A DNA stretch of 64,000 bases, from the NCBI RefSeq assembly GCF_000143415.4, contig NW_003314269.1, forward strand, positions 1,242,150 through 1,306,149, written 5' to 3'. Below are positions 20,501-63,900 of this stretch, in pieces (within the stretch, counting starts at the first letter, position 1; each line of letters begins with the position of its first letter). The translations under genes were made by a program, and so were the position numbers. This DNA comes from Selaginella moellendorffii (taxonomy: Eukaryota; Plantae; Lycopodiophyta). The notes beneath the pieces were generated by a model. The model made no database searches. It was not told the DNA's origin and worked only from the letters and a program-made list of their open reading frames with translations.

Positions 20501-20683
20501 AGTTTTTGGGGCTTTAGATTCATACAGTGTAACCGCTTTAGGGTTTATATTTAAAAGAAGAATATGCTTACAATTTGAAGAATATTCTCGAGCAGTTTTG
20601 TATAGGGTCTTGGTTAGGAATATACCAGAATATGCCCACCTGGAGTTTTGGGAAGATATTTCTTTCGCTTGGGTTCAGGGTTT

Positions 20684-24651: not shown

Positions 24652-24749
24652 CGGAAGCTATAAACCCTAAAACATTTCTGATAAGCCCTGGCTCCATCCA
24701 GCCGTCCACGTGGCTGGAAAGCCAAGTGGATACCGAATATCCATGGCAC

Positions 24750-26835: not shown

Positions 26836-28388
<1,553 letters not shown>

Positions 28389-38116: not shown

Positions 38117-38490
38117 TGTAGCGTATGTGATCATGGGATGAGATTTAGATATACTATCACCGTGGATCCTTAGAACCTTGAGGGATAAATGGGGATAAAA
38201 TAGCCACTAAGGGCTTTCTCATCAAGCAATTGCCCTTTTTCCAATTGGCTTAAGAGGAGAGAGATAAGATGCGCTACAGTTGGTATTAGAGGAAATGGCA
38301 CGGGTTCGATTCCCATTGATTAGTGGCTACTTAAAAATATAATATACTCTTGAGCAAGGTATATTCCTATCCTTAAATTTGAAATCGTACGCATTAGACA
38401 TCCATGCGTACGTCCTTCCTCTTGTGTGGAGTATTCACGGACAAAGGTATCCACCGTGGGATTGCGGTACGGGTGGATGACTAATTGCCA
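38117..38490 (+). mobile_element. Small LTR element (TRIM-like, family D): 162-bp LTR, PBS and short internal region; other end not visible
   Basis: TGTAGCGTAT...ATGCGCTACA terminal inverted repeat 38117-38278; TGGTATTAGAG (Met-i PBS-like) at 38281; GGTTCGATTCC at 38303. Confidence 0.65.
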
Positions 38491-40016: not shown

Positions 40017-40029
40017 TCTCTGATACCAA

Positions 40030-43000
40030 TGTTATGATCCGGCACAAAAAGACAAAGATCTCGTTGCCCTAGACTATGCTACACCACCTCTTGAGGTTCC
40101 TCACCACCCAACCACCCCCGAGCTACCTCAAAAGCTCCACTGCGCCACCGCGCCGCCGCTCCACTGTGAGCCCTAGGGTAGGTTAAGTCCCTTACCCTAA
40201 CATGCCTTAATATACCCTTGAGCCTCCCTTTGACTGACGTTGACCACGTAGTCAAAGCTGGCGCCTAACAATTCTTCCCCCCCAACAAAGTCCTTGTCCC
40301 AAGGACGAATTGTACCGGTGATCACCCTTTCTGGGGAATTCTGCTCAAGCTCCTGGTCCATCTTCCACAGTCGTATACATCAAGGAGGCATTGGGCCCGT
40401 CACTCCGAGATAGTACACCTTTCAACTGGCTGACATAAAATACTGGATGAATTTTCACCCCAGCTGGCAGCCGCACCCGATAAGCCGCTTTACCAATGCG
40501 CTCCAGCACTTCATATGGACCAGCATATCGATGGGAGAGTTTATCACTCTTCCCTATCCGTAAAGGCACCAAGGTGTTTCGCCGCTCACTTGACGGAAAG
40601 ATCACTCGCACGAAGACGAGATCACCCACCTTATATTCCCGGAATTGGCGATGCTCATTAGCAAACTTCTCCGCTCTATCCTGAGCTGCTTGCAAATTCC
40701 GTTTGCATACCACCAGAATCTCATCAAGTTCTGTGGCCAGATCAGTTGCCTCGGAATCAAGCTTTTCTTGAACGTCCTTACTCAAATGCAATCCCAACTC
40801 CACCGCTGTTCGAGGATGCCTTCCAAACATCGCAAAGTAAGGACTTAGCTTGGTTCCACTGTGTTGGCTATTGTTGTAAGCAAATTGCACCAACGGAAGA
40901 TATAGATCCCACTGTCCTTGCCTTTGACCAATGCTACAACGTAGCATATCCTCCACCACCTGATTCACACGCTCAGTTTGCCCATCCGTCTGAGGATGAT
41001 CTCCACTCGAGAGTTTCAAAGTCACTTGCATAGCCTTTGCAAAACTTTTCCAAAATCCACTGGTGAACTTTGAATCTCGATCACTAATGATGTCCTCCGG
41101 CAAACCAAAATCAGGAAAAACCTTCTCCAAGTAAACCGCAGCCAAGTCTGAGGCAGTGACAGTCTTCCGAAGAGCCAACAACCGCACATACTTCGTCAAC
41201 CGATCTACTATGACCCATACTTGCTCCTTTTGCCTCTGTGTTCGTGGCAAACAAGTGATGAAGTCCATAGAGATACTACACCAACAGCTCGGAGGAATAG
41301 GTAAAGGTTGCAAAAGTCCCCCCGGCTTCTCCCGTGGCACCTTAACCCGCTGACAAAGCTCGCATGATTTACAATACTTGAGGATATCAGCCTTCATATT
41401 CCTCCAATAAAAGTTGCGCTTAATCAACTCATACGTCTTCTTCCCCCCAAAATGACCGGCCTCTGGACGATCATGATAGTGGAATAAAACTTGAGTAATT
41501 AACGCATCCACCCGTGGCAAATAGACACGGCCATTGTAGTAGAAAATCCCATCCACCAATGAGAAAGGAGCTTCCATCTGGTCTCGCAAAGAGGCCACCT
41601 CAGCATCCTGAGCCTGAGCATGCTCAACCAACTGCCCAAACTCGCTGACCACCTTACTCAAATGATGACAAAATCGTGTTCGTAACATCGTCACATGACG
41701 AACACGAGATAAAGCATCTGCCACCACATTTGATTTTCCTGGACGATGCTCAATAGGAAACTCCCCAAACTCCATGAGTTTGACCATCCAACGAGCTTGC
41801 CTAGTGTTCAACTCCTTCTGTGTGAAAAGATACACAAGTGGTTTGTGATCTGTCAACACCACGAACACTGCACCATAAAGATAGTGCCGCCACGTCCGCA
41901 AAGCATGAACAATAGAGAGTAACTCTTGCTCATATGTGGAATAGCGTTGCTCCGCGGAATTCAAAGTTCGACTCTCATATGCAATAGGTTGTCCCTCTTG
42001 CATGAGAACTCCTCCCAGTGCATAACCACTCGCATCGCATGTCACCTCGTAAGGTTTCGATGGATCAGCAATGCGAAGCACTGGAGCCTCGATCAACAAT
42101 CGTTTCAGCGCCACAAAACTCTCCTCTTGTGGCGTCTTCCACTCGAATGGCACATTCTTGCGTAACAACCGCGTCAATGGAATAGCCACCTCTGCAAACT
42201 TATGCTGGAAACGTCGGTAGTAACTAGCCATACCAAGAAAACTGCGCAACTCGGCCACTGTAGTCGGTGTAAGCTAGTTTTCCACCACAGCCACCTTCCT
42301 TGGATCCGTCTTGACACCCTTAGATGTCACAATATGGCCTAGATATTCCACCTCCGACTTTGCAAATTCACATTTGCTCTTCTTCGCATAAAGTTTGCTG
42401 TCTCGAAGTAACAAAAGAACCTTGCGCAAATGCACCCTATGCTCCTCCATATTCTTGCTAAAAACAAGAATATCGTCCAAGAAAATCTCCACAAACTCAT
42501 GAAGATAACGCCCAAATACCTCCGTCATCAACCGAGTAAATGTGGCCGGTGCATTCGTCAAACCAAATGGCATAACGGTAAACTCAAAATGTCCGAAGCT
42601 TGTGTTGAATGCCGTCTTGGAGATAGATGCATCATCCATTGCAATCTGATGATATCCACTCCTCAGATCAATCTTGGTAAACACTCGTGCTTCACCAAGC
42701 TTGTCTAGGATATCATCCACACGTGGCATCGGCATCTTGTCCTTCACTGTCTTCTTGTTTAAAGCACGGTAGTCAATACACATCCGCATTGAACCGTCCT
42801 TCTTTTTCACAAGCAAGACCGGAGCACCAAACGGAGACTTACTTGGCTGAATAAATCCAAACTCAAGTAACTCCTTGACTTGCCGCTGAACTTCTTGCTC
42901 CTCCGCATAACTTAACCGAAATGGACGCCGGTAAATTGGCCGCGTCCCCGGCTCCAATGTAATCCCATGCTCCACACCTCGTAATGGAGGCAATCCATGA

Positions 43001-43253
43001 GGAAGTTCAGATGGAAAAACATCAGAAAACTCGTCAAGTACATCCCGTACTGCTGCTTCTCCCCCACACGTGCCTTGGTCCCCCAAGTCACGAACAAACA
43101 GCAAGTAACTTGAAAGTGCTTTTCCATTACGACAAGCCCGCTTCAAAGATGTAGCAGAGAGCATAACAACTGGTGGTTGAACGCCCTCGCCAAACCACAC
43201 ATCTTTAACGCCACCATACTCCAGCGAGATACGCTTAATGCTCCACTTATCTC
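40030..43253 (-). mobile_element. Gypsy family B copy B1: pol, PPT and 241-bp LTR (40030-40270); 5' part lost in the gap
   Basis: RT FLDD, RNaseH CDAS, IN HHCC/DDE/GPY, no chromodomain; PPT 40271-40283; TG..CA LTR; premature TAG at 42274. Confidence 0.92.
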
Positions 43254-43921
43254 NNNNNNNNNNNNNNNNNNNNNNNNNNNNNNNNNNNNNNNNNNNNNNN
43301 NNNNNNNNNNNNNNNNNNNNNNNNNNNNNNNNNNNNNNNNNNNNNNNNNNNNNNNNNNNNNNNNNNNNNNNNNNNNNNNNNNNNNNNNNNNNNNNNNNNN
43401 NNNNNNNNNNNNNNNNNNNNNNNNNNNNNNNNNNNNNNNNNNNNNNNNNNNNNNNNNNNNNNNNNNNNNNNNNNNNNNNNNNNNNNNNNNNNNNNNNNNN
43501 NNNNNNNNNNNNNNNNNNNNNNNNNNNNNNNNNNNNNNNNNNNNNNNNNNNNNNNNNNNNNNNNNNNNNNNNNNNNNNNNNNNNNNNNNNNNNNNNNNNN
43601 NNNNNNNNNNNNNNNNNNNNNNNNNNNNNNNNNNNNNNNNNNNNNNNNNNNNNNNNNNNNNNNNNNNNNNNNNNNNNNNNNNNNNNNNNNNNNNNNNNNN
43701 NNNNNNNNNNNNNNNNNNNNNNNNNNNNNNNNNNNNNNNNNNNNNNNNNNNNNNNNNNNNNNNNNNNNNNNNNNNNNNNNNNNNNNNNNNNNNNNNNNNN
43801 NNNNNNNNNNNNNNNNNNNNNNNNNNNNNNNNNNNNNNNNNNNNNNNNNNNNNNNNNNNNNNNNNNNNNNNNNNNNNNNNNNNNNNNNNNNNNNNNNNNN
43901 NNNNNNNNNNNNNNNNNNNNN
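43254..43921. other. Assembly gap (N run)
   Basis: 668 N. Confidence 1.
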
Positions 43922-46900
43922 TATACCATCTGCCTTGTTCCTGTTTAGACTTGTTCTTCTTTGGTTTGTTAAGTGCAAAGTAATTTTTATATAGTGTTTG
44001 ATGAACTTTCAATAGTAGTTGCATAGCCCCAAGAATGCCCTTAACTCATGTACGTTCAATGATTATTTCCATTCCTAGATTGCTTAAACTTCCTCAACAT
44101 CCACCTTAAACCCATCCTTGCCCATTACATGCCCAAGAAACTTTACCAATAACTTTGTTAAGCAAAGTTATATATGCTCTCTATAGTATATAACTTGTAT
44201 TCCCTTAGTTTCTTAAATACCTTTATTAAGTGTTCAACATGTTCTTTCAGCATCTCATTATAGATTAGGATGTTATCAATATAAATGACCACAAAATGAT
44301 CTAAATAGAGTATTAAGATGTGATTTTGTGATTTAGATTTTGTGATTAAGATGTGAACTACTAATGTCACTAGTGCATTGCATAGCCTAAAGAGCATCAT
44401 CAAGAATTCCAAATTTTTATATCTCGTCTGATAGGTTGTTTTCTCGACATTTTCCTCTGCTACCCTAATTTAGAAGTATCCTAATCTTAGGTCAATTTGC
44501 GAGAAGTATCTTGCCTTTCTCAACATATTAAAAAAATTCTCAATCCTTAGCAAAAGGTATTTAACCTTTTTTTGTATATTTGTTGAGCAACTAGTAATCT
44601 ATACATATACACATAGACCCATCTTTCATTTTCATGAATAACACCAGAGCCATATAGAGAGTTGCTCAACCTAATATACCCTTTCTCAACCAACTCTTTG
44701 AATTAGCATTTGAGTTCTTTAAGCTCTTTTTTGTTCAACCAATAAAGGGGATAAATTACTAACTTAGCACCCTCAACCAACTCAATCTTATGTTTTATTG
44801 GTTGGGTAGGGGGTAACCCCACCAGTAATTCCTTTAGCATAGTACTCGAAATTAGTCTAACACCTATTGAATCATTAAAGGCACTTCCTTTGTTATTTTA
44901 TCACTCTTTATGGCGAATAAGCACAAAAGTATTGCCTTAGTTCTTTTAGTGAGTTATCCTCTTAAGGACATTAGATTCAAATAGAAATCTTTGGCTTTAC
45001 ATTACCTTATCTTTAAATCTTGAGCCTCCACTCTAGATTGTTCTCCTTAAGCATTCACCAATACCATAAGGTTTTTATTTTGTCCATGTAAAGTTACCAT
45101 AAACCAATTAAACTAATCCATCCTAAAGATCATATCAAACCTTGCCATATCCAAAACAATGAAATCCATGTTTATTTTTCATGTCCTTACTTCAACTCTT
45201 ATTTATTAAAGTACCTCATTGGTGCTTTAGCTATCTTGAACAAACTTTATAATCATTTGTTCTCGCAGCCACTGCATCGATAGTCCAGCTTGCCCGATTA
45301 TGTTTACAGCCACAAAATTATTCTAAACATTTATGTTAATAAAGATCTTAATAAAGCTATCTTCAAACTTCCCTTGAAAGGCTAATAAATGTCGCAAATG
45401 ACTCTCTATCAAAGTTATTCGTGTGATGAGTTAGGGACTTGATCAGATATCTTAATTTAGACTTCACCCGACCTAATAACTATATTCACTTTGGCTTTTT
45501 CAAGTAGGGACATTCTTTTAAGAAGTGTTTGGCTTTATTACAATTTAAATATATGTTATTCGCCACATTGCTAGCAAACTTAGTTTACTTATCATTAGGT
45601 TTGTCCCTTTTCACTTGACTTCTGCTCTTTGGCCCTTATGAGTTATTCTGTGTTTCAATTCCTTTGCTCCTCAGCTCCATATTTAGGAGTTTAGCTCTGT
45701 CCCTTCATTTAGTGGCTTAAAGCCTTGAAACTTGGGTTCTGCTCTACTATCCTTAAAATGTGGCATGTGACACACTCTTTTAAGATTTTCATATATCTCT
45801 ATACTCTAAATTGATCTCTTAGCTCCCTTCCACAAAAAAGAAAAGAAGAAGATGGTCCTATAAAGTAAGAATGTCAAATATAAGCTTGCACAAGAACTAA
45901 CATCTCCATCCCTCTAAATATTCCATAAAAAACAAAAAACACATAAACTCTCATAATTGATTGGTGCCTCTCTTTTATAACCCCATTCACCTTAGTAGTA
46001 GAATTCCTCTCACAATTAATTACACAATTAATATGGGTGGCTCTTTAAGATTTTTATAACTCTTTAGATTCTAAATAGTTGTACATTTTGTTAAAATATT
46101 TAACTTGTCCTTTTCAAGAACACAACTAATTAAAGCTCATAATACTTTTTGTTCTCTTTTGTTAGTTTCTCCCCATATTTTTTTAGAATTCTACTTGAAG
46201 TTCGATCAAGAGCCTCCAATCTTTTTTTCTAAGAGTGTTATAAGAGAGAGCTTCCTCTACAAAATATTTAAATTAAATCCAAAATTATAATTTGGAGAAT
46301 ATATGTCATGATAAAGGTAATCAAGTAGAAAAATATATTCTTCTTAATAGTGGTGTGGGAGAAATTGAAATTCAGTGGGATCTTAATATATATATAAATC
46401 AAGAGATTCTAGTTACAGAATCTTTGTAGCAAAGAGAGGAAAGTGCATTAGTTTTGCAATCAACTATGTAAGGAGTGAAGGATGAAGTTGTTCTCTTTAG
46501 CAACAAAAATGAAAAATATCAGCTTTTAGACATAGTTATAAGCTATAAATTTTTCCATTCTAATTTGCCAATTTACCTTGTCTATTTGACCACCACTACC
46601 TTGGCTTTAATTAAGTTTCCTTAATAAAGTTCTTATCTATTGTACTAACTCTTACTTGGTCTTACTTGGTTTTAGTTATTCACTATATAAGTAGTGGAGT
46701 ATTAGCTATCCATTCACGAATTTCCAAATTCTCTCTTAATCCCCCTTTCCAAGTTAAATTAGACTTAAGGTTCGGCTACACTCCTTGCAAGCACAAGCAG
46801 CCAAACACACCAAACCTCTAAGTTTCTAACTTCCTTTGGTACACCAAGACTTGATCATGGGACCCTTTAAATCCCAAACCTTGGGTTTATTGCTTGCTTT

Positions 46901-48145
46901 AGGACCCTGAGGGGAAACACCATGCCCTAATGGCTTGGCATAGGTATTCCTACTGAGCGAGGACCAATGAGCCACATGGTACTCACATGGGGCACCACTC
47001 CACATAAGTCGGGAGCACTACTATCAGTTTCACTTTCGGAAGTCAGAGTTGCTATTGGGCACTTCCTTGGGTGGCCTCTCTAGCACCACCTAACTCCATG
47101 CTCACTCCCACCCGAGGCCCTTATATTCAGATTTGGTCTTAAACTTGACCTTGGACTTGGTCTCGGACTTGATCTCAAACCCAACCTCGGACTTGGACTT
47201 GGTCTCAGACTCGATCTCAGACTTGGTCTTGGACTCGATCTCAAATCTCAAAATCAATCTCAAACTCAGTCTCAGACTCGGTCTTGAACTTGGTCTCAAA
47301 CTTGGTCTTGAACTCAGTCTCAAAGTTAGTCATGGACTTGATTTCGGACTTGGTTGCATCTAATGAACTCTTTATCATTCTAGTCATGGTTTTGGTATCC
47401 TTTAACCTATGACACCTTAGGGAGTTAGTTTTTTACAACTCCACCACCCATAGAAAAAGTTTAATACCCACATTGAACATCTCTATTTAATCCTACAACT
47501 TGTTAACTATGTCTCTAGGGGCATCCCCTTACTTAGTGGTGTGCCTAAGTTAGCCTCTCCAACTAAGAGCCCATGACAATAGGATATAAGTGTCTTTATA
47601 CCCCTCACCTCACCTTGCCCTAGTTTAGGGTTGGGACTTGAAGCCATACTAGAGGGTTGGGACGTGAACCCAACTTTTGTATAATACGCCTATAGATTTG
47701 ACATCCCTATAAGGAGTCAGGTGTAGCTCTTTACACTTGGTCAACCTAGCTAAACCATGTTAATTAGCTTACTTTCGGTGCACTTTTGGGTCCCAACATA
47801 TGACATTACTCCACTAGATCTCACAGATTGGCTAAGTTCTCCTCTAGTTTCTATATTACTTTGCAGAGTGGAAATTCTTTCCACTTCATATAGAACTCCC
47901 TCACCTTGCATCCATGTCATTTGCTCTTGCATGCATTGAGGATGGCTTTAACTTTATATTCCTCTTCCCCTTGAATAACCTCAGGTAAAGGTTTTATTTG
48001 GTTGTTGCGAAGTGGATCCTCAAAGTATGGTTTCAGTAAGTCCATGTGGAACACACGATACATCTTTCCATCTCTCGAGGAAGTCAGAGGCAATAAGCCA
48101 CTTTACTAATTCGAGCCTGAATCTCATAAGGCCCCACGAACTTAC

Positions 48146-48655
48146 TGTAAGCAACTAAAAAGAACGACTTAAGAAACGATCTATAGAGGTTCAAATATAG
48201 AGGGAAAGGGCCCATGAATAAAAGTGCACCCCCTTTTCCAATCGGTTAAGGGTTTTGGGATATTTAGGGTTAAGCATCCTTAGGTTTAAATAGTATTGGG
48301 CTGGGTGACCTCCCGAGAAGTCCAAACTCAGGAGCCTACATTTGGTATCAGAGAGGTCTCGGGTCTGACTCTGTTAGTTGGTTAGGGGAATCACACCACA
48401 TGTTGATTGACATTTGGCTGGTCCAGTTTGCTCCCGCTGGGCTTGACCCGAGGGGTAGGTCACACCACATGTTAATTGACATCTAGCTGGTCCAGTTTGC
48501 TCCTGCTGGGCTCAACCCGAGGGGTAGGGTGTCAAAAAAGCGGGGCTCTCAGGAGAGTTGTGGATATTTAAGGTTAAACGTCCTTGGGTTTGAATAGTAC
48601 TAGGTTGGGTGACCTTCCAGGAAATCCAAACTCAAAAGCTTACATTTGGTATCAA
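48146..48655 (+). mobile_element. Cassandra TRIM, older rearranged tandem copy (LTR, PBS, internal, partial LTR, PBS)
   Basis: LTR 48146-48340 with 5S-like segment 48268-48323; PBS TGGTATCAGAG; ~68-bp internal duplication; second 5S segment 48571-48627 followed by a second TGGTATCA. Confidence 0.88.
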
Positions 48656-51600
48656 ATATCAGTTCATTTCTAGGAATACATGCATTTAACCTTTGGGTCA
48701 ACTTTTGGCTGATCTAATTTGGTAACTTTAGGTACTTGGTGTTTAACCACACTTTCTCCCCATGTTGGAATTTTACATCCTAGTGTTTCTGGTTTGCGTA
48801 TTTAGTTTACCTTTGTTGAGCCCGTTCCAAGGAATCCCTCACTAGATTCCAAATGTTGAGTGTTTCCGCTGTGAATGCCTCTATTGTGGGTAACTCTTCA
48901 TGATACTTGGCCATGCTAAGCTCCACAAGACCTTCAATAGTGATGACTTCTTATAAACTTACCCCAATACTTGAATATAGTGAGTTGTTATAGCATATTT
49001 TTGCAAGTCCTAAACCACTTACCCAATCAGTTTGGTCTTCAAAGATATAGTATTGCAAATAATCCTTCAGTTGTCTATTCACTTTTTCCATTTGTCCATT
49101 TATCAAGAAGTGTCATTGCCATTAAACTTGACTCAATACCTAATATTTATCTATGGGTGATAGGATGTGTTGAATTTCAACTTGGTGCGATACTGTTTTA
49201 GGAGAGTTCTCTAGAACCTACGAGTGAAGATATTATTTTGATCTGAGATAATTTCTTTTGGCCTTCCCCGTACTCAAACTATTGTTCGAAGGACAACTTT
49301 GCCACACCTTTGACATTTACTTCTGTTGTGGTGGTATGAAATGTGCCATCTTCGAAAACCAATCCACCACCACAAATATCGCATCAAACCCCTCACTTGG
49401 GGGGAGTCCCGTGATGAAGTTTATCATAAACATTTCCATGGATGATCTAGAATTGAGAGGCTCTGTAATAAGTCCCCCACTATCTTTAGTTATGGCTTTG
49501 ACTTACTGACATGTTGGACATATCTTTACATAATCTTGGACACTTTTAGCCATGTTTTGCTAATGATACTTTCTCTTGAGTAAACCTATCATCTTGGGCA
49601 CTCCATTATGTCCCACAAGAGGTCCATGACACTCTTCTAGGACTACCTTTCTTAGTTCCCTTTGTGGAACATACACCTTTGTCTATTTATAATAGATGAG
49701 TCCACTGTGTTCTATATAACTTATTTTCTGTTCTATAGGTGGTTCATCTCCCTAGTAAGCATCCCATGCCTCTTGGTTCCTTAGCAACACTTCTTGTCCT
49801 AGACCATCGTTCTCATATGTTATCCGAACATCATCCCAAAAGATTACTATCATGTTGGATATTGCTAATTTCAAGTTTGTTTTTCAGCATAAAGAATTTA
49901 TGTTGCTCTTCTCAGGTTTATACAAAATCTCACAATTGAACTTGGCTAAAGCATTCACCCACCAACCCTCTTTTCCTTATAGGTCGGGTTGTCACAGAAA
50001 GTGTTTTATTGTCATATTATCTATGTAAACTTTGAAGTGCTTCATAAGGTAGTGTTGCCACTCCTTGAGCACCTTGACCACTGCAATAATTCCTTTTTGT
50101 GGGCAAGCCACTTGCATTAAGCCTTGTCCAACTTCCTAAAAAAGAATGCCACTAGATGGTTGTCTTATGTATTCTGTTATTCACACCATCTTCCTTATTC
50201 CTATTTGGTCTGTTAAAGGCAAGGCTACTCTCAAATAGTGTTTGATAAACTTTTGATAGTAGTTGCATAGCCCCAAGAACACCCTTAATTCATGTATATT
50301 CAATAGTTGTTCCCATTTTTGGATCACTTAGACCTTCTCAAGATCCACTTAGAGCCCATCCTTACCCAACACAAATTTTACCTTTTATTGAGCAAAGTCA
50401 TATTTTCTCTCTTTAATATACAGCTTGTATTCCTTTAGTTTCTCAAACACCTTTGTCAAGTGTTTAGCATGCTCCTTTAGTGTTTCGCTATAGATCAAGA
50501 TGTCATTAATGTAGACGACCACGAAATGATCTAGATAGGGTACAAAGATATAGTTCATTAGTGCTGAAAATGTTATTGATGTATTGCACAGCCCAAAGGG
50601 CATCACTAGAAACTCAAAATTTTCATACCTTGTTCGACAAATTGTCTTCTTGATATCTTCTTTTACTACCTTGATCTAATAGTATCTAGATATTAGGTCA
50701 ATCCTTGGGAAGTATTTTGCCTTTCCCAAATTATCGAACAGGTTTTCAATCCTTGGTAAAGTGTATTTGTTCTTCTTCATATACTTGTTAAAAAACTAGT
50801 AGTTTATACACATGCATATAAAACCATTTTTTTTTTTCACAAATAACATTGGCACCCCATACAGTGATTTGCTCAACCTAACATACCTTTTATCCACTAA
50901 CTCCTCAAGTTGGCGATTGAGATCCTCGAGTTCCTTTTTGTCTAACTGATAAGGGGGATGAACCACTACCTTAACACCCTTAACCAGCTCGATCTTATGT
51001 TCTATTGCTACCCCGCTGGTAACTCCTTTGGCATGGAATCTCAAAATTAGTCTAACATCTGCTAGATCACTAAAGAAACTTCCTTTGTTCATATCTTTTT
51101 GTCACTCCCCATTAAGAGTAAGCACAAAAATGTTGTTTTGGTTTCTTTAGTGAATTTTCCTTTTATGGACCCCAAGTTTAAGTAGAAGTCTTTGGCTTTA
51201 CATTGCTCTATCTTTCAATCTTGGGCCTTCACCTTGGATCGTTCTCCTCGGGCATTTGTTAGTACCATAAGATTCATATCTTGTCTATGCAAATCTACTA
51301 CAAATTGATTGAACTAATACGGTGAAATATATATCCACTTTCCATATCTCTACTTTGACTCTTGCTTGTTGAAGTACTTTATCGATGCTTTGGCTACATT
51401 GAACAAACTCTATAGTCTTTAGTTCACCCAACCACTGCACCGTTAGTCTGTCTTGCTAGATTATGTGTTATGATCTGGTGCAAAAAGACAAAGATCTATG
51501 TTATGATCCGGATCAAAAAAACAGAGATTTAGTCACCCTAGATTATGCTACACCACCTCTTAAGGTTCCTCACCACCCAACCACCCCCGAGCTACCTCAA

Positions 51601-51819
51601 AAGCTCCACTGCACTGCCGCTCCACTGTGAGCCCTAGGGTAGGCTAAGTCCCTCACCCGAACATGCCTTAATATATCCTTGAGCCTCCCTTTGACCGATG
51701 TTAACCACGTGGTCAAAGTTGGTGCTTAACAATTCTTTGCTGTAAGGAACCAACTCGCCGAGGTGTCGTAGGCTAAAGGAGCCCCAAAAGCTTGACCAAA
51801 ATGATAAAGAGTTCATCGA

Positions 51820-52121
51820 ATGGGACCAAGTCTAAGATCAAGTCCAAGACTGACTCTAAGACCGAGTTCGAGATAGAGTCCGGAATCGAGTCTGAGACCG
51901 ACTCGGAGACTGAGTTCGAGACCGAGTTTGAGACCGAGTTCGAGACTGAGTTTGAGACAGAGTCCGAGATCCGAAAACGGATCCGAGACCGAGTCCGAGG
52001 TCGAGTCTGAGGTCGGGTCCGAGATCGGGTTCGAGATCAAGTCCGAGATCAAGTCCGAGACCGAATCCGAAGTCGGATCCGAGATCGAGTCCGAGATCGA
52101 GCCAGAGACCAAGTCCAAGTA
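51820..52121. repeat. Hexamer array (GAGTCC/GAGACC/GAGTTC/GAGATC) in the family A LTR; also 58830-59120 and 47125-47355
   Basis: Roughly 50 degenerate CpG-rich hexamers. Confidence 0.9.
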
Positions 52122-55100
52122 CTAATACGGGGTCAAGGGGTGAAAGCCCAAAGCGTGCATCTCCTAGGGAGGGGGGGGGGCCGTAGGGGGTTCCAAAAGT
52201 ATAGTAGGGATAGTGAGGTCTAGGAACCAATCTTGAAGGAACTCTCTAGTGGTGCTTCCAAACTGACTTGAGGTTGAGACTACGGCCGAGGGGCCTTGGG
52301 TGGGAGTGAGCATGGGCTTGGGTGGTGCCGGAGGGGCCATCCAGGGAAGTGCTCAAGAGCAGCTCCCACCCCCGAAAAGGAAACCGACTGCGGTGCTCCT
52401 AGCTCATGTGGAGTGGTGCCCCACTTGAGTACCTTGCGGCTCATTGGTCCTCGCCCTTCCTAGGGGCTTGGGCCTTCCCTTCGGGATGGAAGTGGGGGGG
52501 TAGAGGTACCCATACTGGGCCGTTAGGCCATGGTGTTTCACCCCGACGTCCCGAAGCAAGTGCTACACCCAAAGCTTGGGATTTAAAGGGTCCCATGATC
52601 AAGTCTTGTTGTACCAAGGGGTGTTAGAAACCTGGAGGCTTGGTGTGCTTGGCTGCTTGTGCCTGCGGGGAGTGTAGCCGAACCTTAAGTTCAGTCTAAC
52701 TCGGGGAGGGGGATTGGGAGAGATTTGGGAATCCGTAGATGGGATGGCTAACACTCCGTTGTTCGTGTAGTGAGTAGCTGAAACCAAGTAGGACCAAGTA
52801 AGAGCTGGTACAATAGGCGAGAACCTTAGCAAGGGAACTTAGCACAAGCCAAGGCAGTGTTGGTCGGATAGACGTGGTAAATTGGCAAATTGGAAAGGAA
52901 AAATTTGTGGCTTACAATTTGGTATCGGAGCCTTTTCCTCAGTTCTAGCGAAGGATAAAGGCGGATTGCTGGGAGATGGCAAGGGCAGGGCGTAAGCGAA
53001 CCCAGGCGGAGACAGAACCTTCGTCGGAGCTGGAGCCTCCAGTCGAACAAGAGGCTATGGATGAGGAATCCTTGCATGAGGAGGACTCTAGTGAGGAAAC
53101 TTCTAAACAGGAGTCCGGTGGCGAGGTTTGGTCATCCAAGGCTCGATTGGACATGCTAGAAGGACAGTTGGCACAGACCAATGCCCTGCTAGAGACTCTC
53201 GTACGCAAGCTAAAGCGTGACGAGAAGCGGAAAAAAAAGAGAAAGACTACGGATGCTGGCAGTGCAAAAGGTGCGGACCCTTCGACAGGGACTAAGGCAG
53301 AACCAAACAAGGTCGAACAGACCGAAGTAGAATCAGTCCCTCAGGTAGTTCCCAAGTACAAACCAAAGCCCCCACCGGTCTTGAAGGGAGTGAATGACTA
53401 TAAGGTGGTGGAGGATTGGTTTTACGATATGGAGGACTACTTTCGAGCGTTGCAATTACCGAGCTCGGAGAAGGTCCCATGTGCAAAACCATACTTGGCA
53501 GATAATGCCAAGTCTTGGTGGAGAACGACGGAGGCCAACAAAGGACCAGTGGCCACTTGGGACATGATGAAGGTGAGGATCCGCGCAACATACGTTCCTC
53601 CGAATGCCACTTTGCATCTGAGAGATGAGCTGAGTAGGTTGAAGCAGACTAGAACCATCCAGGAATATGTGAATGGGTTCATGGCAAAGAGGATACTTGT
53701 CACGGACATGGGGGATATGGATGCGTTCCATGCCTTCATATCAGGTTTGCAAACCTGGGCTCGCGGTGAGGTGATGCGCTGGAACCCGACCAACTACAAG
53801 GAAGCATTGGATGCGGCCATCAAGGTGCATTTCAACGATAACCTGCGAAAGGGGAACACGACGGGGTCGGGATCCACGTTTAGCAAAGGGGCCAAACCAA
53901 GAGGAACGTATAACAGAGGGAAATTCAAGAAGAGTTTCTCTAAAAATGAGTCCTCGGGGTTCCAGAAAGGCAAATCCGGTGGCCAGCGAGCGAGTACGTG
54001 GGGGAGTCAAGCGAAAAAAGACAAACCCACGGATAAGAAGGTCAAGTCGTATAGCAGTGTGGGAAACAACGTATGCTACAACTGCGGTGAAGTGGGACAC
54101 TTTTCGAAGGAATGTCCCTACCCGAAAAAGGCCAGAGCCAATATGGCCATCAAGTCGAGTGAAGTCCAAAATGAGGTATGTGATCCAGTCCCTAACTCAA
54201 AGTTACTCATTACACGAGCAACTTTGGTAGAGAGTCGTTCGCGACATCTACTAGCCCTCCGAGGGAAGCTCGGAGGTAACTTTGTTAAGATCCTTATTGA
54301 CACGGGTGCTTCAGATAATTTTGTGGCTGCAGACATAGTCCGGCAAGCCGGACTAATGGTGCAGCAGCTAGGCGAACCAAGGACTATAGAATTTGTTCAA
54401 GGTAGCCAAAGCACTAATGAGGTACTTTGACAAGCGAGAGTAGAAGTAGGGACATGGAAAGTAGACATAGATTTCACCGTGTTAGACATGGTGGGATTTG
54501 ACGTGATCTTCGGAATGGATTGGTTCAATCGGTTCGTGGTAGCCTTGCATGGACAAGGTAGGAACCTTGTGGTACTGGCGAATGCCCAAGGAAGAAGATC
54601 TAGGGTGGAGGCCCAGGATCTAAAGGTAGGGCAAAGCAAGGCCAAAGAATCCTACTTAAACCTGGTGTTCACAAGAGAACAACTCACTAAAGGAACTAAG
54701 GCAACATTTTTGTGCTTACTCTCGGTGAAGAGTGACAAAAAGACAGGAATGGAAGAAGTACCTTTAGTGATCCAACGGGTGTTGGACCAATTCCAGGATA
54801 CCATGCCGGAGGAGTTACCGGCAGGGTTGCCCTCCGCACGACCGATAGAACATAAGATTGAGCTAGTCGAGGGTGCTGAGGCGGTGGTTCGTCCCCCCTA
54901 TCGTTTGAACGAAAAAGAACTCAAGGAGCTCAAGTGCCAACTAGAGGAGTTGGTGGACAAAGGGTATGTTAGGTTGAGCAAGTCGCCGTATGGGGTGCTA
55001 GTGTTATTTGTGAAAAAGAAAGATGGATCTATGCACATGTGCATAGATTACCGGTTGCTCAACAAGTATACAAAGAAGAACAAGTACCCTTTGCCAAGGA

Positions 55101-55716
55101 TTGAGGACCTGTTCGATAGGTTGGGAAAAGCAAAATACTTCTCGAGGATTGACCTAAGGTCAGGATACTACCAGATCAGGGTAGCTGAGGAAGATGTCGA
55201 GAAAACAACCTGTCGAACAAGGTATGGGAGCTTTGAGTTTCTGGTGATGCCCTTTGGGCTGTGCAATGCGCCGGCAACATTTTCGGCGTTGATGAACCAC
55301 ATCTTTGTACCCTATCTGGATCACTTCGTGGTTGTCTATATCGACGACATCCTGATCTATAACGAGACGCTAGAGGAGCATGTCGAACACTTAGCGAAGG
55401 TGTTTGAGAAACTAAGGGAACACAAACTGTATGCTAAAGAGAGCAAATGTGACTTTGCTCAACAAAAGGTAAAGTTTCTCGGGCATGTGGTGGGCCAGGA
55501 CGGGCTCAAGGTGGACCCGGAGAAGGTCCAAGCGATCTAGGAATGGGAGCGACCATCGAATGTACATGAGTTGAGGGCATTCTTGGGGCTATGCAACTAC
55601 TACCGAAAGTTTATCAGACACTATTCGAGAGTAGCCCTACCCTTAACAGACCAAACAGGAAAAGGGAAGATGGTATGGACAGCGGAATGCAAGGCGGCAT
55701 TCATCCACCTCAAAGG

Positions 55717-56311
55717 TGTAAGTTCCTGAGTTTGGACTTCCCGGGAGGTCACCCAGCCCAGTACTATTCAAACCCAAGGACGCTTAACTCCAACTATCCC
55801 AAGACCCTTAACCAATTGGAAAAGGGGGTGCACTCTTATTCATGGGCCCTTTCCCTCTATATTTGAACCCCAATGGATCGTCTCTCAAGTCGTTCCCTTT
55901 GGTTGCTTACAATCCACCACGCTTCCCTGCAAGTTCACGCCCTCGTGAACGGAAGCTGAGAGCCGCAGCTCTCCCGAGAGCCCCGCTCTCTTGACACCCT
56001 ACCCCTCGGGTCGAGCCCAGTGGGAGCAAACTGGACCAGCCAGATGTCAATCAACATGTGGTGCGATTCCCTTAGCCAACCAACAGAGTCGGACCCGAGA
56101 CCTCTCTGATACCAAATGTAAGTTCCTGAGTTTGGACTTCCCGGGAGGTCACCCAGCCCAGTACTATTCAAACCCAAGGACGCTTAACTCCAACTATCCC
56201 AAGACCCTTAACCAATTGGAAAAGGGGGTGCACTTTTATTCATAGGCCCTTTCCCTCTATATTTGAACCCCAATGGATCGTCTCTCAAATCGTTCCCTTT
56301 GGTTGCTTACA
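55717..56311 (-). mobile_element. Intact Cassandra TRIM (595 bp): two 195-bp LTRs with 5S rRNA-derived promoter, TSD AAAGG
   Basis: LTRs 55717-55911 and 56117-56311 nearly identical; minus strand AGTTAAGCGTCCTTGGGTTTGAATAGTACTGGGCTGGGTGACCTCCCGGGAAGTCC matches the 5S A-box/IE/C-box; Met-i PBS and PPT present. Confidence 0.95.
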
Positions 56312-57449
56312 AAAGGGAAGTTGAGGAAGGCTCCTGTGTTGGCATTACCAGACTTTGGTAAGGACTTTGAGGTAGAAACAGATGCTTCGGACTTTGCGTT
56401 GGGCGCAGTTTTGAAGCAAGACAACCATCCAGTAGCGTTCTTCTCGAAGAAGTTGGACAAGGCTCAACGGAAGTGGCCTGCCCACGAGAAGGAATTGTTT
56501 GCAGTGGTCAAGGCGCTCAAGGAGTGGCGACACTACCTTAGGAGACACTTCAAGGTTTATACGGACAATGTGGCACCAAAACACTTCTTGTCACAGCCCG
56601 ACATGAGAGGGAAACAAGGTCGGTGGGCCAATGCCTTGGCTGAGTTTGATTGCGAAATTCTGTACAAGCCTGGGAAGAGCAACATCATGGCGGATGCGCT
56701 AAGTCGAAAAGCGAGCTTAAGGTTGGCGATATCCAGCGCAACAGCAACCTTCTCGAACAATGTGCGGACAGTATATGAGAATGATGGTCTAGCACAAGAA
56801 GTGTTGCTGAGGAATCTAGAGGCACGGGAAGCTCACCAGAGAGGTGAGCTGCCAACGGAAGAGAAAACGGGTTATGCGGAACGCAACGGACTCATCTATT
56901 ACAAGCAAACGAGGGTGTATGTTCCAGAAGGGGAACTAAGGAAGGTACCCTTAGAAGAGTGTCATGACGGACCTCTTGCGAGACACGGCGGAGTGCCCAA
57001 GACGATGGGCTTACTCAAGAGGAAGTACCATTGGCCAGATATGGCTAAAGACGTCCAAGACTATGTAAAGACATGTCCAACATGTCAGCAGGTCAAAGCC
57101 GTGACTAAGGCTAGTGGGGGCTTGTTGCAAAGCATCCCAATTCCAGATCGTCCGTGGAAATGTCTTACAATGGACTTCATCACGGGACTTCCCCCAAGCG
57201 AGGGGTTTGATGCGATATTCGTGGTAGTGGACCGATTTTTGAAAATGGCACATTTCATACCCACCACAACGGAAGGGGATGCAGAAGGTGTGGCGAAGCT
57301 GTTCTTCGAACAAGTGGTTCAAGTACGGGGAAGGCCGGAAGAGATCATCTCAGATCGAGATAAGATCTTCACTAGTAGGTTTTGGAGGACTCTCTTGGAA
57401 CAGTATCGCACCAAGTTGAAATTCAGCACAGCCTATCACCCACAGACAG

Positions 57450-57496
57450 GTATGGGGTATTAAGTCAAGTTTGGTGGCACTAACACTTCTTGACAG
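57450..57496 (+). other. 47-nt spliceosomal intron in retrotransposon integrase
   Basis: CAG|GTATGG...CACTAAC..TTCTTGACAG|AC; removal restores HPQT-D-xQTxRVN in frame. Confidence 0.85.
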
Positions 57497-57915
57497 ACAA
57501 ACAAACGAAAAGGGTGAATAGGCAGCTAGAGGATTATTTGTGATGCTATATCACGGGAGACCAAACCGATTGGGTAAGTCATTTGGGACTTACAGAAATG
57601 TGTTATAACAACTCACCACATTTGAGTATCGGGGTGAGTCCATGGGAAGTCATCAATGGGCGAGCTATTGAAGGTCCTGTGGAACTCAGCGTGGCCGAGT
57701 ATCATGGAGAGTTACCCGCAGTGGAGGCATTCACGGCGGAAAGACTCAACATTTGGAATCTAGTGAGGGATTCCTTGGAACGAGCTCCAACAAAGGCAAA
57801 CTAAGTACGTGAACCAAAAGTGTCGGGATGTAGAGTTCCAAGCTGGGGAGAAGGTGTGGCTGAACACCAAGAACCTTAAGCTACCAAGTGGGATCAGCCG
57901 GAAGTTGACCCAAAT

Positions 57916-57967
57916 GTAAAAATGCATGTATTCCTATAAATGAATTGATCTTGAGTTCCTTAAGCAG
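57916..57967 (+). other. 52-nt spliceosomal intron in retrotransposon integrase C-terminal region
   Basis: AT|GTAAAA...TTAAGCAG|GTTC; removal restores KLTQ-x-FAGPY in frame. Confidence 0.78.
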
Positions 57968-60900
57968 GTTCGCGGGGCCTTACGAGATTGAGGCTCAAAT
58001 CGGTAAAGTGGCTTACCGACTCCGACTTCCTCGAGAGATGGGGAAGATGCATCCCGTGTTCCACGTGAACTTACTCAAGCCGTATTTTGAGGATCTGCTT
58101 CGCAAGGACCAAGTAAGACCTTTACCTGAGGTTATCCAAGGGGAAGAGGAATACGAAGTCGAGGCCATCCTCAATGCGCACAAGAGCAAGCGACAAGGAC
58201 GCGAGGTGAGAGAGTTCCATGTGAAGTGGAAAGGATTTCCACACTGTGAAGCAACATGGGAACCGAAGGAGAACCTAGTGAACGCGCGAGATCTAGTAGA
58301 GGAATTTCTGCAAGGCAGAACTCTATGTACTTATGCAAAGTTCAATTAAAGTATCAATTTGTGAAGTTGAGCAATGGGATATGTTGGGACCTGAAGGCGC
58401 GCCGAAGGTAAGCTAATTAGCATGGGTTAGCTAGGTTGACCAGGCGTAGGGAGCTACGCCTAACTCCTTGCGGGGATGTCGAATCCGTAAACGTATTCTA
58501 CGGAGGTTGGGTTTGAGTCCCAACCCCCTAGTAAAGCAAGGCTGGGTTCAAGTCCCGACCCCATACTAGGGCGTGGTGAGGTGAAGAGTATAGGGACACC
58601 TATATTCTGTTGTCATGGGCTCTTGGCTGGGGAGGCTAACTTAGGCACACCGCTAAGTGGGGGGATGCCCCCGGAGACATGGTCAACAAGTCGTAGGATA
58701 AAAAAGAGACGTTCGATGTGGGCATCGAACTTCTTCTATGGGTGGTGGAGTTGTAAGGAACCAACTCACTGAGGTGTTGTAGGCTAAAGGAGCCCCGAAA
58801 GCTTGACCAAAATGATAAAGAGTTCATCGGATGGGACCGAGTCTAAGATCGAGTCCAAGACCGACTCTAAGACCGAGTTCGAGATAGAGTCCGGAATCGA
58901 GTCCGAGACCGACTTGGAGACCGAATTCGAGACCGAGTTCGAGATCGAGTTCGAGACGGAGTCCGAGATCCGAAAACGGGTCCGAGACCAAGTCCGAGGT
59001 CGAGTTTGAGGTCGGGTCCGAGATCGGGTCCGAAATCGAGTCCGAGATCAAGTTCGAGACCGAATCTAAAGTCGGATCCGAGATCGAGTCCAAGATCAAG
59101 CTAGAGACTAAGTCCGAGTACTAATACGGGTCAAGGGGTGAAAGCCCAAAGCGTGCGTCTCCCAGAGGGGGGGGGGGGGGGGGGGGTAGAGGTACCCATA
59201 CCGGGCCGTTAGGCCATGGTGTTTCACCCCGACGTCCCAAAGCACGTGCTGCACCCAAGGCTTGGGATTTAGAGGGTCCCATGATCAAGTCTTGTTGTAC
59301 CAAGGGGTGTTAGGAACCTGGAGGCTTGGTGTGCTTGGCTGCTTATGCTTGCGGGGAGTGTAGCCGAACCTTAAGTTCAGTCTAACCCGGAGAGGGGGAT
59401 TGGGAGAGATTTGGGAATTCATAGATGGATGGCTAACACTCCGTTGTTCGTGCAGTGAGTAGCTGAAACCAAGTAGGACCAAGTAGGAGTTGGTATAATA
59501 GGCGAGAACCTTGGTAAGGCAACTTAGCACAAGCTAAGGCAGTGTTGGTCGGATAGACAAGGTAAGCTGGCAAATTGGAAAGGAAAAATTTGTGGCTTAC
59601 ATTTGCCCCCAATAAAGTCCTTGTCCCAAGGACGAGTTATACTAGTGATCACCCTTTCTGGTGAACCCTGCTCAAGCTCTTAGTCCATCTTCCACAGCCG
59701 TATACATCAAGGAGGCATTGGGTTTGTCACTCCGAGATAGTACACCTTTCAACTGGCTGACATAAAATACTGGATGAATTTTCACCCTAGATAGCAGCCG
59801 CACCCAATAAGCCGCTTTACCAATGCGCTCCAGCACTTCATATGGACTAGCATATCGATAGGAAAGTTTATCACTCTTCCCTGTTCGTAAAGGCACCAAG
59901 GTGTTCTGCCGCTCACTTGATGGAAAGATCACTCACACAAAGACAAGATCACCCACCTTATATTCCCGGAATTGGCGATGCTCATTGGCAAACTTCTCTG
60001 CTCTATCCTGAGCTGCTTGTAAATTTCATTTGCACATCACCAGAATCTCATCAAGTTCTGTGGCTAGATCAGTTGCCTCGGAATCAAGCTTATCTTGAAT
60101 GTCTTTACTCAAATGCAATCCCAACTCCATCGCTGTTTGAGGATGCCTTCCAAATATGGCAAAGTAAGGATTTAACTTGGTTCCACTGTGTTGGTTATTG
60201 TTATAAGCAAATTGCACCAATGGAAGATATAGATCCCATTGTCCTTGCTTTTGACCAATGTTGCAACGTAGGATATCCTCCACCACCTGATTCACACATT
60301 TGGTTTGCCCATTCGTCTGAGGATGATCTCCACTCGAGAGTTTCAAAGTCACTTGCATAGCCTTTGCAAAGCTTTTCCAAAATCCACTAGTGAACTTTGA
60401 ATCTCGATCACTAATGATATCCTTTGGCAAACCAAAATCAGGAAAAACCTTCTCCAAGTAAACCGCAACCAAGTCTGAGGCATTGACAGTCTTCCGAAGA
60501 GCCAACAACCGCATATACTTCGTCAACCGATCCACTATAACCCATACTTGCTCTTTTTGCCTCTGTATTCGTGGCAAACAAGTGATGGAGTCCATAGAGA
60601 TACTACACCAACGGCTCTGAGGAATAGGTAAAGGTTGCAAAAGTCCCCCCGACTTCTCCTATGGCACCTTAACTCGCTAACAAAGCTCACATAATTTATA
60701 ATACTTGAGGATATTAGCTTTCATATTCCTCTAATAAAAGTTGCACTTAATCAAGTCATACGTCTTCTTCCCCCAAAATGACTGGCCTCTGGATGATCAT
60801 GATTGTGGAATAAAACTTGAGTAATTAATGCATCCAGCCGTGGCAAATATACATAACCATTGTAGTAGAGAATCCCATCCATCAATGAAAAAGGGGCTTC

Positions 60901-63900
60901 CATCTGGTCTTGCAAAGAGGCCACTTTAGCATCTTGAGCCTAAGTATGCTCAACCAACTACCCAAACTCACTGACCACCTTATTCAAATGATGACAAAAT
61001 CATGTTTATAACGTCGTTATATAACGAACATGAAACAAAGCATCTGCCACCACATTTGATCTTCCCGGACATGCTCAATAGGAAACTCCCCAAACTCCAT
61101 GAGTTTAACCATCCAACGAGCTTGCCTAGTGTTTAACTCCTTTTGTGTGAAAAGATACACAAGTGGTTTGTGATCTGTCAACACCACGAACACTACACCA
61201 TAAAGATAATGCCGTCATATCCGCAAAGCATGAACAATAGAGAGTAACTCTTGCTCATATGTGGAATAGCGTTGCTCCGCGGAATTCAAAGTTCGACTCT
61301 CATATGCAATAGGTTGTCCCTCTTGCATGAGAACTCCTCCCAGTGCATAACCACTCGCATCGCATGTCACCTCGTAAGGTTTCGATGGATCAGCAATGCG
61401 AAGCACTGGAGTCTCGCTCAACAATCGTTTCAGTGCCACAAAACTCTCCTCTTGTGGCTGCTTCCACTCGAATGGCACATTCTTGCATAACAACCGCATC
61501 AAAGGAATAGCCACCTCAGCAAACTTATGCTGGAAACGTCGGTAGTAATTAGCCATTTCAAGAAAACTATGCAACTCAACCATTATAGTTAGTGTAGGCT
61601 AATTTTCCACCACAGCCACCTTCCTTGGATCCATCTTGACACCCTTATATGTCATAATATGGCCTAGATATTCCACCTTCGACTTTGCAAACTCATATTT
61701 GCTCTTCTTTGCATAAAGTTTGCTGTCTCGAAGTAACAAAAGAACCTTGCGCAAATGCACCCTATGCTCCTCTATATTCTTGCTAAAAACAAGAATATCG
61801 TCCAAGAAAATCTCCACAAACTCATGAAGATAACGCCCAAATACCTCCATCATCAACCGAGTAAATGTGGCCGGTGCATTTGTCAAACCAAACGGCATAA
61901 CTGTAAACTCAAAATGTTTGAAACTTGTGTTGAATGCCGTCTTGGAGATAGATGCATCATCTATTGCAATCTGATGATATCCACTTCTCAGATTAATCTT
62001 GGTAAACACTCATGCTTCACCAAGCTTGTCTAAAATATCATCCACACGTGGTATCAGCATCTTATCCTTCACTGTCTTTTTGTTCAAAGTGTGGTAGTCA
62101 ATACACATCCACATTGAACCATCCTTCTTCTTCACAAGCAAGACCGAAACACCAAACAAAGACTTACTTGGCTAAATAAATCCAAACTCAAGTAACTCCT
62201 TGATTTGTTGTTGAACCTCTTGCTCCTCTGCATAACTTAACCGAAATGGACGCTGGTAAATTGGCTGCGTCCCCGGCTTCAATGTAATCCCATGCTCCAG
62301 ACCTAATAACAAAGGCAACCCATGAGGAAGTTTAGATGGAAAAACATCAGAAAATTTGTCAAGTACATCCCGTACTGCTACTTCTCCCCCACACGTGCTT
62401 AAAATCCACATTGGATCACCACGGAACATGCCCTCCAGCATTATCGCTGATTCACGAGTATCCTCGAGCTCCATCTTATTCCACACACAATTGAGCTGAT
62501 AAGCAACAATCAAAAGTCTCTGGTTGTTCTCGTCATTCTTACGCTGCAAAGTTTGCAACTTTTTAATATCTGACTTACCGTGAGAAGAAGATTGGCCATT
62601 CTTCTTGTCCTGCTACTTGTTCTTCAACTACGGACAATCAGTTTTGTAGTGTCCAAGTTTACTGCAATGATGACAACCCTATCTATAATTCTTCATAAAG
62701 AACTTTTGCTTCTTGGACCCCTTTGCATCCAAAGTAGTCACCACCAACTTCAACTTGTGATGCTTGTTCCCATTCTTGTGTCCACGGCGATCATCACGAC
62801 GATTTTCGATAGAAGGACTCCACAAACACTTGCAAGACTTGTGTTTGTCATTGTCAAGTCAACGAGCCGCATCAAAGAGCTCCTCCAAACTCTTTGTAGG
62901 CTGAGAATGATGCAAATGTTGTCGCATGCTCTCACTATGTAGGCCATTAATGAAGTAGGACTTGTTCTGATTTGGATCCTTTGTTAGAACATGATTAATC
63001 AAGCGAGTAAGCTTCTCAATATAGTCCTCAAATATCATTTTCCTTTGCTGGAAATGTCAAAGTTCTGTACAAACTTGCATCTTGTCTTGCATCTCTTGCT
63101 GATTTTGATTAAGGGCTCACAGCTCATGAACCACATCTTGAATGGTCCAAATCTCCACAGCTTTGTTAGCACCATCGTCGGCACCACCATCGACAATAGG
63201 ATTCCAATGTCCAGCTTGGTCAGCCATCGCAACCAAGTCCTCTGATACCAATGTTATGATCCGGCATAAACAGACTAAGATCTATGTCATGATCTGGTGC
63301 AAAAAGACAGAGATCTAGTCACCCTAAATTATACTACACCACCTCTTGAGGTTCCTCACCACCCAACCACCCCTAAGCTACCTCAAAAGCTCCATTACGC
63401 CACTGCTCCACTATGAGCCCTAAGGTAGGTTAAGTCCTTCACCCTAACATGCTTTAATATATCCTTGAGCCTCCCTTTGACCGATGTTGACCACGTGGTC
63501 AAAGTTGGTGCCTAACACTATGTCTGCAGCCATAAAATTATTTGAAGCACCCGTGTTAATAAAGATCTTAACAAAGCTACTTTTGAGCTTCTCTCAAAGG
63601 GCTAATAGATGTCGCAAATGACTCCCTACCAAAGTTGCTTGTGTAATGAGTAACTTTGAGCTAATGACTAAGTCACGTACCTCAATTTAGACTTCACTTG
63701 ACTTAATGGCCATATTGACTTTAGCCTTCTTTAGGTAGGGACATTCTCTCAAAAAGTGTCTCACTTCACCCCAATTTAAATATATATTATTTCCCACATT
63801 ACTAGCAAACTTTATTTTCTTATCAGTGGGTTTGTCTCTTTTTGCCTAACTCCCCCACATACTTGCTCTTTGGTTATTGAATCTGTTTTTCCAAACTTGA

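Follow-up and report, generated by a model that had tools for sequence, protein, structure and literature searches.

That retrotransposition removes introns is the classic evidence for an RNA intermediate. Plant LTR retrotransposons are generally intronless, Ogre and EVADE being singled out as exceptions in a 2025 review (PMC12786077). In Ogre, a legume Ty3/gypsy element of the Tat group, a stop-bearing intron is spliced from a subset of transcripts for downstream pol (PMC6317226, PMC4408406); genomic copies keep the intron, and splicing is needed for translation (PMC6317226, PMC4408406, PMC12786077). BARE1 has separate translated and packaged RNA pools, with unspliced RNA as the genome (PMC3735527). 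Both BARE1 and EVADE splice within gag/PR to give Gag only (PMC3735527, PMC5580714), and CRR splices out RT (PMC3735527). Foamy viruses make Pol from spliced RNA (PMC7828637), and Penelope-like elements retain introns through retrotransposition (PMC8557442).

Here we analyse a chromodomain-bearing Ty3/gypsy family of Selaginella moellendorffii whose integrase is interrupted by two short inserts, using three copies in a stretch of 64,000 nt (the window). A sequence-only reading of this window had proposed splicing-gated retrotransposition; the introns did prove spliceable and family-wide, while the gating logic itself was already known from Ogre. By anatomy and ORF lengths the family is SM1-Galahad. 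As described by Novikov et al. 2012 (PMC3350952), SM1-Galahad has hundreds of copies of about 95% identity, none of them intact, and measures about 7.5 kb, with TG..CA LTRs of >1 kb, a poly-G tract of 11-25 and a Met-type primer-binding site. Three ORFs were reported: one of 3885 bp that runs as far as the integrase core, one of 316 bp, and one of 309 bp with a group I chromodomain (PMC3350952). In copy 1 of the window, the main frame from the ATG at 52976 to the stop in the first insert is 3885 nt long once the nested element and one duplication are subtracted, the same as published ORF1, and the last frame, from its first Met at 58038, is 309 nt, the same as ORF3. The middle frame, from the Met at 57598 to the stop in the second insert, is 319 nt in this frameshifted copy versus the published 316. 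Since ORF1 and ORF3 match, the published consensus holds both inserts, which are thus family-wide, and the three published ORFs can be explained as three exons. The word ‘intron’ occurs neither in the main text nor in the supplement of the original description, and ‘splic’ is likewise absent from the main text (PMC3350952).

Three protein searches, together with a HMMER search of representatives, found no member of the family among proteins (best identity 49% and 52%), though in one of these searches short overlaps would have been missed at the cut-off of 1e-80. The sole match in a metagenome pattern scan was a chance 19-mer, and the name SM1-Galahad occurs in one paper only in the literature searched. 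The same genome contains an autonomous, intronless sister family, SM2-Galahad, with a single 1577-aa ORF and 99.7% identity between its LTRs (PMC3350952).

Copy 1 (51736-59606, plus strand) displays the chromovirus features of a gag-PR-RT-RH-IN-chromodomain order, LTRs and a 5-bp target-site duplication. The duplication, TTTGC, lies at 51736-51740 and again at 59602-59606. The 5′ LTR (51741-52916) is 1176 bp long with TG..CA ends and a poly-G tract at 52171, and is followed by the primer-binding site TGGTATCGGAGC at 52920-52931, which we take to be of tRNA-Met type. Pfam matches and ORF arithmetic place exon 1 at 52976-57449, as a single gag-PR-RT-RNaseH-integrase frame whose integrase part comprises the zinc finger and the first two catalytic Asp residues. 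Exon 2 (57497-57915) completes the integrase core, where it contributes the catalytic Glu position, and begins an SH3-like domain, while exon 3 (57968-58349, with the natural stop at 58347-58349) holds SH3_Tf2-1 profile positions 24-63 and the chromodomain (Pfam Chromo, E 3.6e-15). A polypurine tract (58740-58750) precedes the 3′ LTR (58752-59601), which is reduced to 850 bp by an internal deletion. All of these features are on the plus strand. The two LTRs are 93.1% identical over 850 columns, with poly-G lengths of 10 and 20, and without the nested element the copy spans 7261 bp. A tandem array of ~12-bp units lies within the LTRs (51820-52130 and 58830-59130). From gag to RT the copy aligns as a single frame with its homologs, the only gap being the nested element.

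Copy 1 is a dead element. It has stops at 54428 and 55538 in exon 1 and at 57541 in exon 2, a one-base frameshift near 57787 in exon 2, and an altered catalytic-Glu position. The stop at 57541 and the frameshift are private to this copy, as other sequencing sources differ at both places. Removal of the first insert had been expected to restore the frame exactly, and so it does at the junction itself; along its whole length copy 1 is still broken by stops, the frameshift and the nested element.

Intron 1 (57450-57496, plus strand) is 47 nt long, in phase 1, with GT..CAG ends. It had been described as splitting the motif HPQT-DGQTERVN; the insert and its in-frame stop (TAA, 57461-57463) stand, but copy 1 does not carry DGQTERVN after the junction. 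A candidate branch point, CTAAC (57480-57484), is predicted only, with its adenine lying 33 nt past the donor and just 13 nt ahead of the acceptor. Intron 2 (57916-57967, plus strand) is 52 nt long, in phase 2 and again with GT..CAG ends, at the place where a second insert had been called. Its read-through stop is the TAA at 57917-57919, and the adenine of its candidate branch sequence TTGAT, at 57948, is 19 nt from the acceptor. GC content is 0.43 in intron 1 and 0.31 in intron 2, compared with 0.48-0.50 in the exons. For size comparison, two introns of a host tubulin gene in the window measure 72 and 65 nt (n=2), and intron lengths of S. moellendorffii have been found to cluster with those of fungi (PMC6157073).

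Homologs are continuous at both sites. A single residue separates HPxT from GQ[TS]E in 139 of 169 homologous proteins, the motif pair is absent from the other 30, and none of the 169 has a longer insert there. In the alignment to Ty3-G, exon 1 reaches residue 1267 and exon 2 picks up at 1270, the exon 2 part of this alignment being weak (E 0.47). With both inserts removed, 142 codons separate junction 1 from the GP[FY] motif; the median for homologs is 143 codons, and 68 of the 70 homologs that carry both motifs fall within 140-147. Both inserts stop the frame and interrupt an integrase that runs on in homologs. Intron 1 is located four codons ahead of the Glu position of the D-35-E motif, and unspliced RNA would accordingly end integrase short of its catalytic Glu, as had been proposed. 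Intron 2 splits the SH3_Tf2-1 domain, leaving the remainder of the domain beside the chromodomain.

Several features of the introns are recorded as side observations. A 5-nt direct repeat, GACAG, flanks intron 1 (57445-57449 and 57492-57496) and has the length of an LTR-integrase target duplication; AG/GT is found at the intron 2 donor of copy 2 (~48690), as in the copy 1 acceptor. Together these fit a model in which introns were gained by insertions into proto-splice sites, though the splice consensus itself predicts part of the pattern. Beyond the copies of the family, no source sequence for either intron was found elsewhere in the window. A hairpin is possible at 57464-57494, over the branch candidate and the acceptor tract, and could favour retention of intron 1, but it is not significant against shuffled sequences. 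Folding was dropped as evidence altogether, with z -1.58 for intron 1 (16 of 200 shuffles as good) and z +0.64 for intron 2.

Two further copies carry intron 1 at the same codon, so that it is present in three window copies of different age. In the older copy 2 (~79% identical to copy 1) it occupies 49100-49146, and in copy 3 (~73% identical) 36956-37002, both on the minus strand. The earlier claim that the same insert recurs in these copies holds for its length of 47 nt and for its codon, but not for the splice signals, the ends being AT..AA in copy 2 and GT..AA in copy 3, with CTAAC absent from both. Both copies are heavily decayed by G>A/C>T changes, and the AG of exonic CAG is intact at 11 of 24 sites in one and 6 of 25 in the other; these copies therefore prove the position and age of the insert, not the conservation of its splice sites. 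Intron 2 of copy 2 (48142-48690, minus strand) keeps its donor GT at 48690 while a nested tandem element breaks its 3′ part; copy 3 does not cover the intron 2 site. Copy 1 has its own 5-bp duplication and lies within a different gypsy element, by which copy 2 is split in turn; the copies are therefore separate insertions, as had been claimed. The nesting order is copy 2, then a gypsy family with ~266-bp LTRs, then copy 1, then a 5S-like element.

These nested elements are of interest in themselves. The second Ty3/gypsy family (51466-63517, minus strand, and also 38354-43950) has an uninterrupted HPQT-x-GQT integrase motif and is an in-window control lacking an intron at that site. A provisional naming of this family as SM-Fogey was dropped, as its LTRs are ~266 bp and not 233. 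The last element to arrive is a 595-bp non-autonomous element foreign to SM1-Galahad (55717-56311, minus strand), with a 5-bp duplication AAAGG, a Met-type primer-binding site and 195-bp LTRs that match Rfam 5S rRNA at 34.1 bits, below the gathering score of 38. By these features it appears Cassandra-like. A tandem of the same 5S-like element lies in intron 2 of copy 2 (~48146-48654, minus strand). The LTRs of this element have the same ends (TGTAAG..GCTTACA) as those of SM1-Galahad, and it is inserted in two of the three window copies, so that Galahad integrase may mobilise it. TRIMs have been reported from S. moellendorffii (PMC4717578). The splicing factor SLU7 encoded in the window falls into the same 90% cluster as a protein labelled S. 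moellendorffii, in agreement with the published host of SM1-Galahad. As wider host context, the window holds SLU7, a PPR-like frame cluster, a beta-tubulin gene with the 72- and 65-nt introns and an N assembly gap (3784-5403, 18180-24657, 26900-28388, 43250-43940), where the PPR and beta-tubulin labels are presumptive ones that we took from the translations.

Splicing was examined in 8 of 23 listed sequencing runs, mapped to 57100-58400 only; none of the runs listed as holders of the sequence is on record as RNA. Three of these (X16, X17 and X18) are raw RNA runs, of which about 12% of each run's reads were used. In X16, recorded as RNA, five reads mapped; one of them skips exactly 47 nt with GT..AG ends, and the depth table indicates one read that enters intron 2. 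X17 gave three partial reads, two entering intron 2 and none with a joint, and X18 gave no reads in the region, hence no test of splicing. The remaining RNA evidence comes from contigs of runs guessed to be RNA (X1, X2 and X6). Contigs of X1 skip 47 nt (depth 3.1) and 52 nt (depth 7.3), a single 1083-nt contig of X2 skips both, and in X6 intron 1 is retained and intron 2 is entered from either side. A difference between copy 1 and the other sources at 57915, the last exon base, places the 52-nt joint two bases off in the output. GT..AG ends are thus removed exactly, as in U2 spliceosomal introns, in three runs of three studies; for intron 1 this includes one raw read on record as RNA, and for intron 2 it is seen in guessed-RNA contigs only. 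Spliced junctions of 47 and 52 nt, which the sequence-only reading had named as the check to make, are accordingly present. Expression of the element is very low in the examined runs. One X1 contig (depth 10.6) covers window positions 57670-57745, departs from exon 2 at 57745 and continues with 105 letters of unrelated sequence; it is either a truncated copy or a chimeric transcript.

These joints bear on whether the inserts could be chance insertions or assembly errors that happen to have intron-like ends. Copies 2 and 3, which lack intact splice dinucleotides and CTAAC, and the short branch spacing would fit such an origin. Exact GT..AG skips in three studies run against chance insertion, and the inserts are part of the published consensus as well as of DNA-like contigs at high depth. 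Moreover, a GT start with a YAG end is found for only 2 of 1983 positions of 47-nt stretches and 4 of 1978 positions of 52-nt stretches in this pol, a chance of 0.001-0.002 for each insert. We regard an origin by accident or error as having next to no probability, and it as almost certain that both inserts are true introns.

A different question is whether the joined sequences are RNA at all. Rare intronless SM1-Galahad copies could give the joined sequences and be the true integrase donors, the intron-bearing majority then being a dependent subfamily. The relevant DNA comes from X13 and X14, which are one sample, DNA-like by inference. Across their 58 and 85 mapped contigs both introns are kept, at a depth of 94-194 for intron 1 and 52-60 for intron 2, and no joint was found among the 143 contigs, those listed reaching down to a depth of about 2 and a further 127 pieces lying outside the listing. 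Contigs drop single-copy variants, and single intronless insertions would escape them, so that X13 and X14 are compatible with a few such insertions; the RNA nature of X1 and X2, too, is guessed. Against intronless donors, variants at 57570 and 57627 are common to the joined X2 contig and the intron-1-retaining X6 contig and are nearly absent from X13 and X14 (0/240 and 3/146 depth in X13), which indicates one lineage in both forms, even though the two contigs are not identical and differ at 57688. In addition, X1 and X2 differ from each other at 57346, 57391, 57397, 57817 and 57995, so that at least two copies, with two different haplotypes, appear joined. Intronless copies nested in intron-bearing lineages would, moreover, themselves derive from splicing. 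We judge intronless donors to be quite improbable. A one-base length variant inside intron 1 (57470), at 43/127 depth in X13 and 15/158 in X14, marks a 46-nt intron subfamily, as expected of a non-coding interior.

As a test of selection, codon positions of differences were compared among sources and among window copies. The source comparison covers 49 hand-copied rows of differences in the sequencing runs; 77 further rows fall outside it, and one intron row and the second letter at 57397 were left out. Of the splits common to several sources, all 5 in exon 1 and 8 of the 12 in exons 2-3 (p 0.019) are third-position differences. A strict set downstream of intron 1 gives 6 of 7 (one-sided p 0.007), under a rule set after seeing the data and among sources that are related. 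For window-only differences the figure is 10 of 24. Between pairs of window copies, exon 1 shows a third-position excess (21 vs 7 and 8; 22 vs 8 and 4), which is absent from exon 2 (6 vs 5 and 4; 4 vs 5 and 1) and exon 3 (4 vs 2 and 4). The spliced X1/X16 copy carries stop-gaining changes, and splicing therefore also occurs on dead copies. The evidence for translation of exons 2-3 during expansion of the family is therefore suggestive only.

In another reading the introns are spliced, but only incidentally: unspliced RNA, simply the prevailing form where the element moved, gave Gag, PR, RT and RNase H, and integrase was borrowed in trans from the intronless SM2-Galahad or another relative. SM2-Galahad is close, young, has a single ORF and exists in hundreds of copies, and the describers found no intact SM1 copy (PMC3350952). 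The lack of third-position excess downstream of intron 1 among window copies and the spliced transcript with its own stops also suit a borrowed integrase, and BARE2 is a precedent for dependence in trans (PMC3735527). Set against borrowing are the two independent inserts, each of whose removal restores homolog spacing, and the full SH3 and chromodomain matches in exons 2-3. Most of the splits that sources share past intron 1 are synonymous, and copy 2, although ~21% diverged, retains both exons and both inserts. We consider it unlikely that the integrase is borrowed. The sequence-only reading had stated that missing junctions together with autonomous relatives lacking the inserts would point to a defective subfamily mobilised in trans; the junctions were seen, but an autonomous intronless relative does exist in SM2-Galahad.

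We think it likely that SM1-Galahad instead retrotransposes from unspliced RNA and obtains full integrase only from doubly spliced RNA. The proposed scheme starts from what is seen in the majority of the family, where both inserts are present and each stops the frame, and from joined forms that exist alongside retaining forms. Both introns persist in insertions that have LTRs and target-site duplications of their own, and from established retrotransposon biology it follows that unspliced RNA was reverse-transcribed, as had been proposed earlier. Judged from the frame, unspliced RNA would encode Gag-PR-RT-RNaseH and a truncated, inactive integrase with neither the catalytic Glu nor the SH3-like domain and chromodomain, and RNA spliced at intron 1 only would yield the core but not SH3 and chromodomain. 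Integrase would then be supplied in trans, from doubly spliced RNA of the family itself, to particles containing unspliced RNA. Spliced RNA retains every known replication signal, and something must therefore exclude it from reverse transcription. This exclusion is the weakest step of the scheme, and the most economical guess is that translated and packaged RNA form separate pools, as in BARE1. The fuller proposal is of an autonomous SM1-Galahad with a host-like integrase gene of three exons, in which two introns were gained, unspliced RNA alone is copied and staged splicing leads to three products, and we put it at slightly under an even chance. That the introns tune integrase dose is a tentative idea, which we are inclined to doubt.

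The scheme has counterparts among the systems outlined at the start. As in Ogre, genomic copies keep the intron and translation needs splicing. Unlike SM1-Galahad, Ogre has one intron of ~274 bp between gag-PR and RT-RH-INT that gates RT, RH and IN, whereas SM1-Galahad is a chromovirus with two introns of ~50 nt inside integrase domains, gating integrase only. There is no Ogre-type intron between gag-PR and RT-RH-INT in SM1-Galahad, where gag to RT is one frame. With BARE1 and EVADE it shares the separation of RNA functions by splicing, but the polarity is opposite: in these elements splicing creates a stop and removes pol expression, whereas in SM1-Galahad it removes stops. BARE1 and EVADE are moreover members of the Copia superfamily with the intron in gag/PR rather than in integrase. 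Within 57100-58400, SM1-Galahad does not conform to the copia short-Gag type, as its stops lie inside the introns and splicing extends the frame. Foamy viruses also have a splicing-dependent pol product, but there gag is spliced out to give a subgenomic RNA and no intron lies inside a pol domain. Penelope-like elements share intron retention with SM1-Galahad but fall outside the LTR elements and lack a DDE integrase.

No earlier description of an intron within the integrase of an LTR retrotransposon was found in the available portions of the literature searched, with Repbase, Dfam and most REXdb supplements outside the search, and the available text of PMC2864245, PMC5718144 and PMC10886601 holds nothing on point. 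The family is known and the Ogre logic is known; two host-like introns in integrase domains that gate integrase alone appear unreported.

Spliced SM1-Galahad RNA keeps the LTRs, primer-binding site, polypurine tract and all coding capacity, and an intronless copy should therefore arise easily and be self-sufficient. Despite that expectation, the majority of the family keeps two introns. If the fuller proposal is true, these introns, in the DDE core and the SH3-like domain, survived hundreds of reverse-transcription cycles, and the host spliceosome would control both integration and chromatin targeting through the choice between no active integrase, core only, and core plus chromodomain. The choice of which RNA to translate and which to copy becomes testable via a built-in 99-nt marker that records spliceosome passage for each RNA or cDNA. 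The family also offers a datable case of double intron gain in a conserved enzyme, and its intronless sister family is available for comparison. More broadly, families annotated as ‘broken into short ORFs’ or as having ‘no intact copy’ may be spliced.
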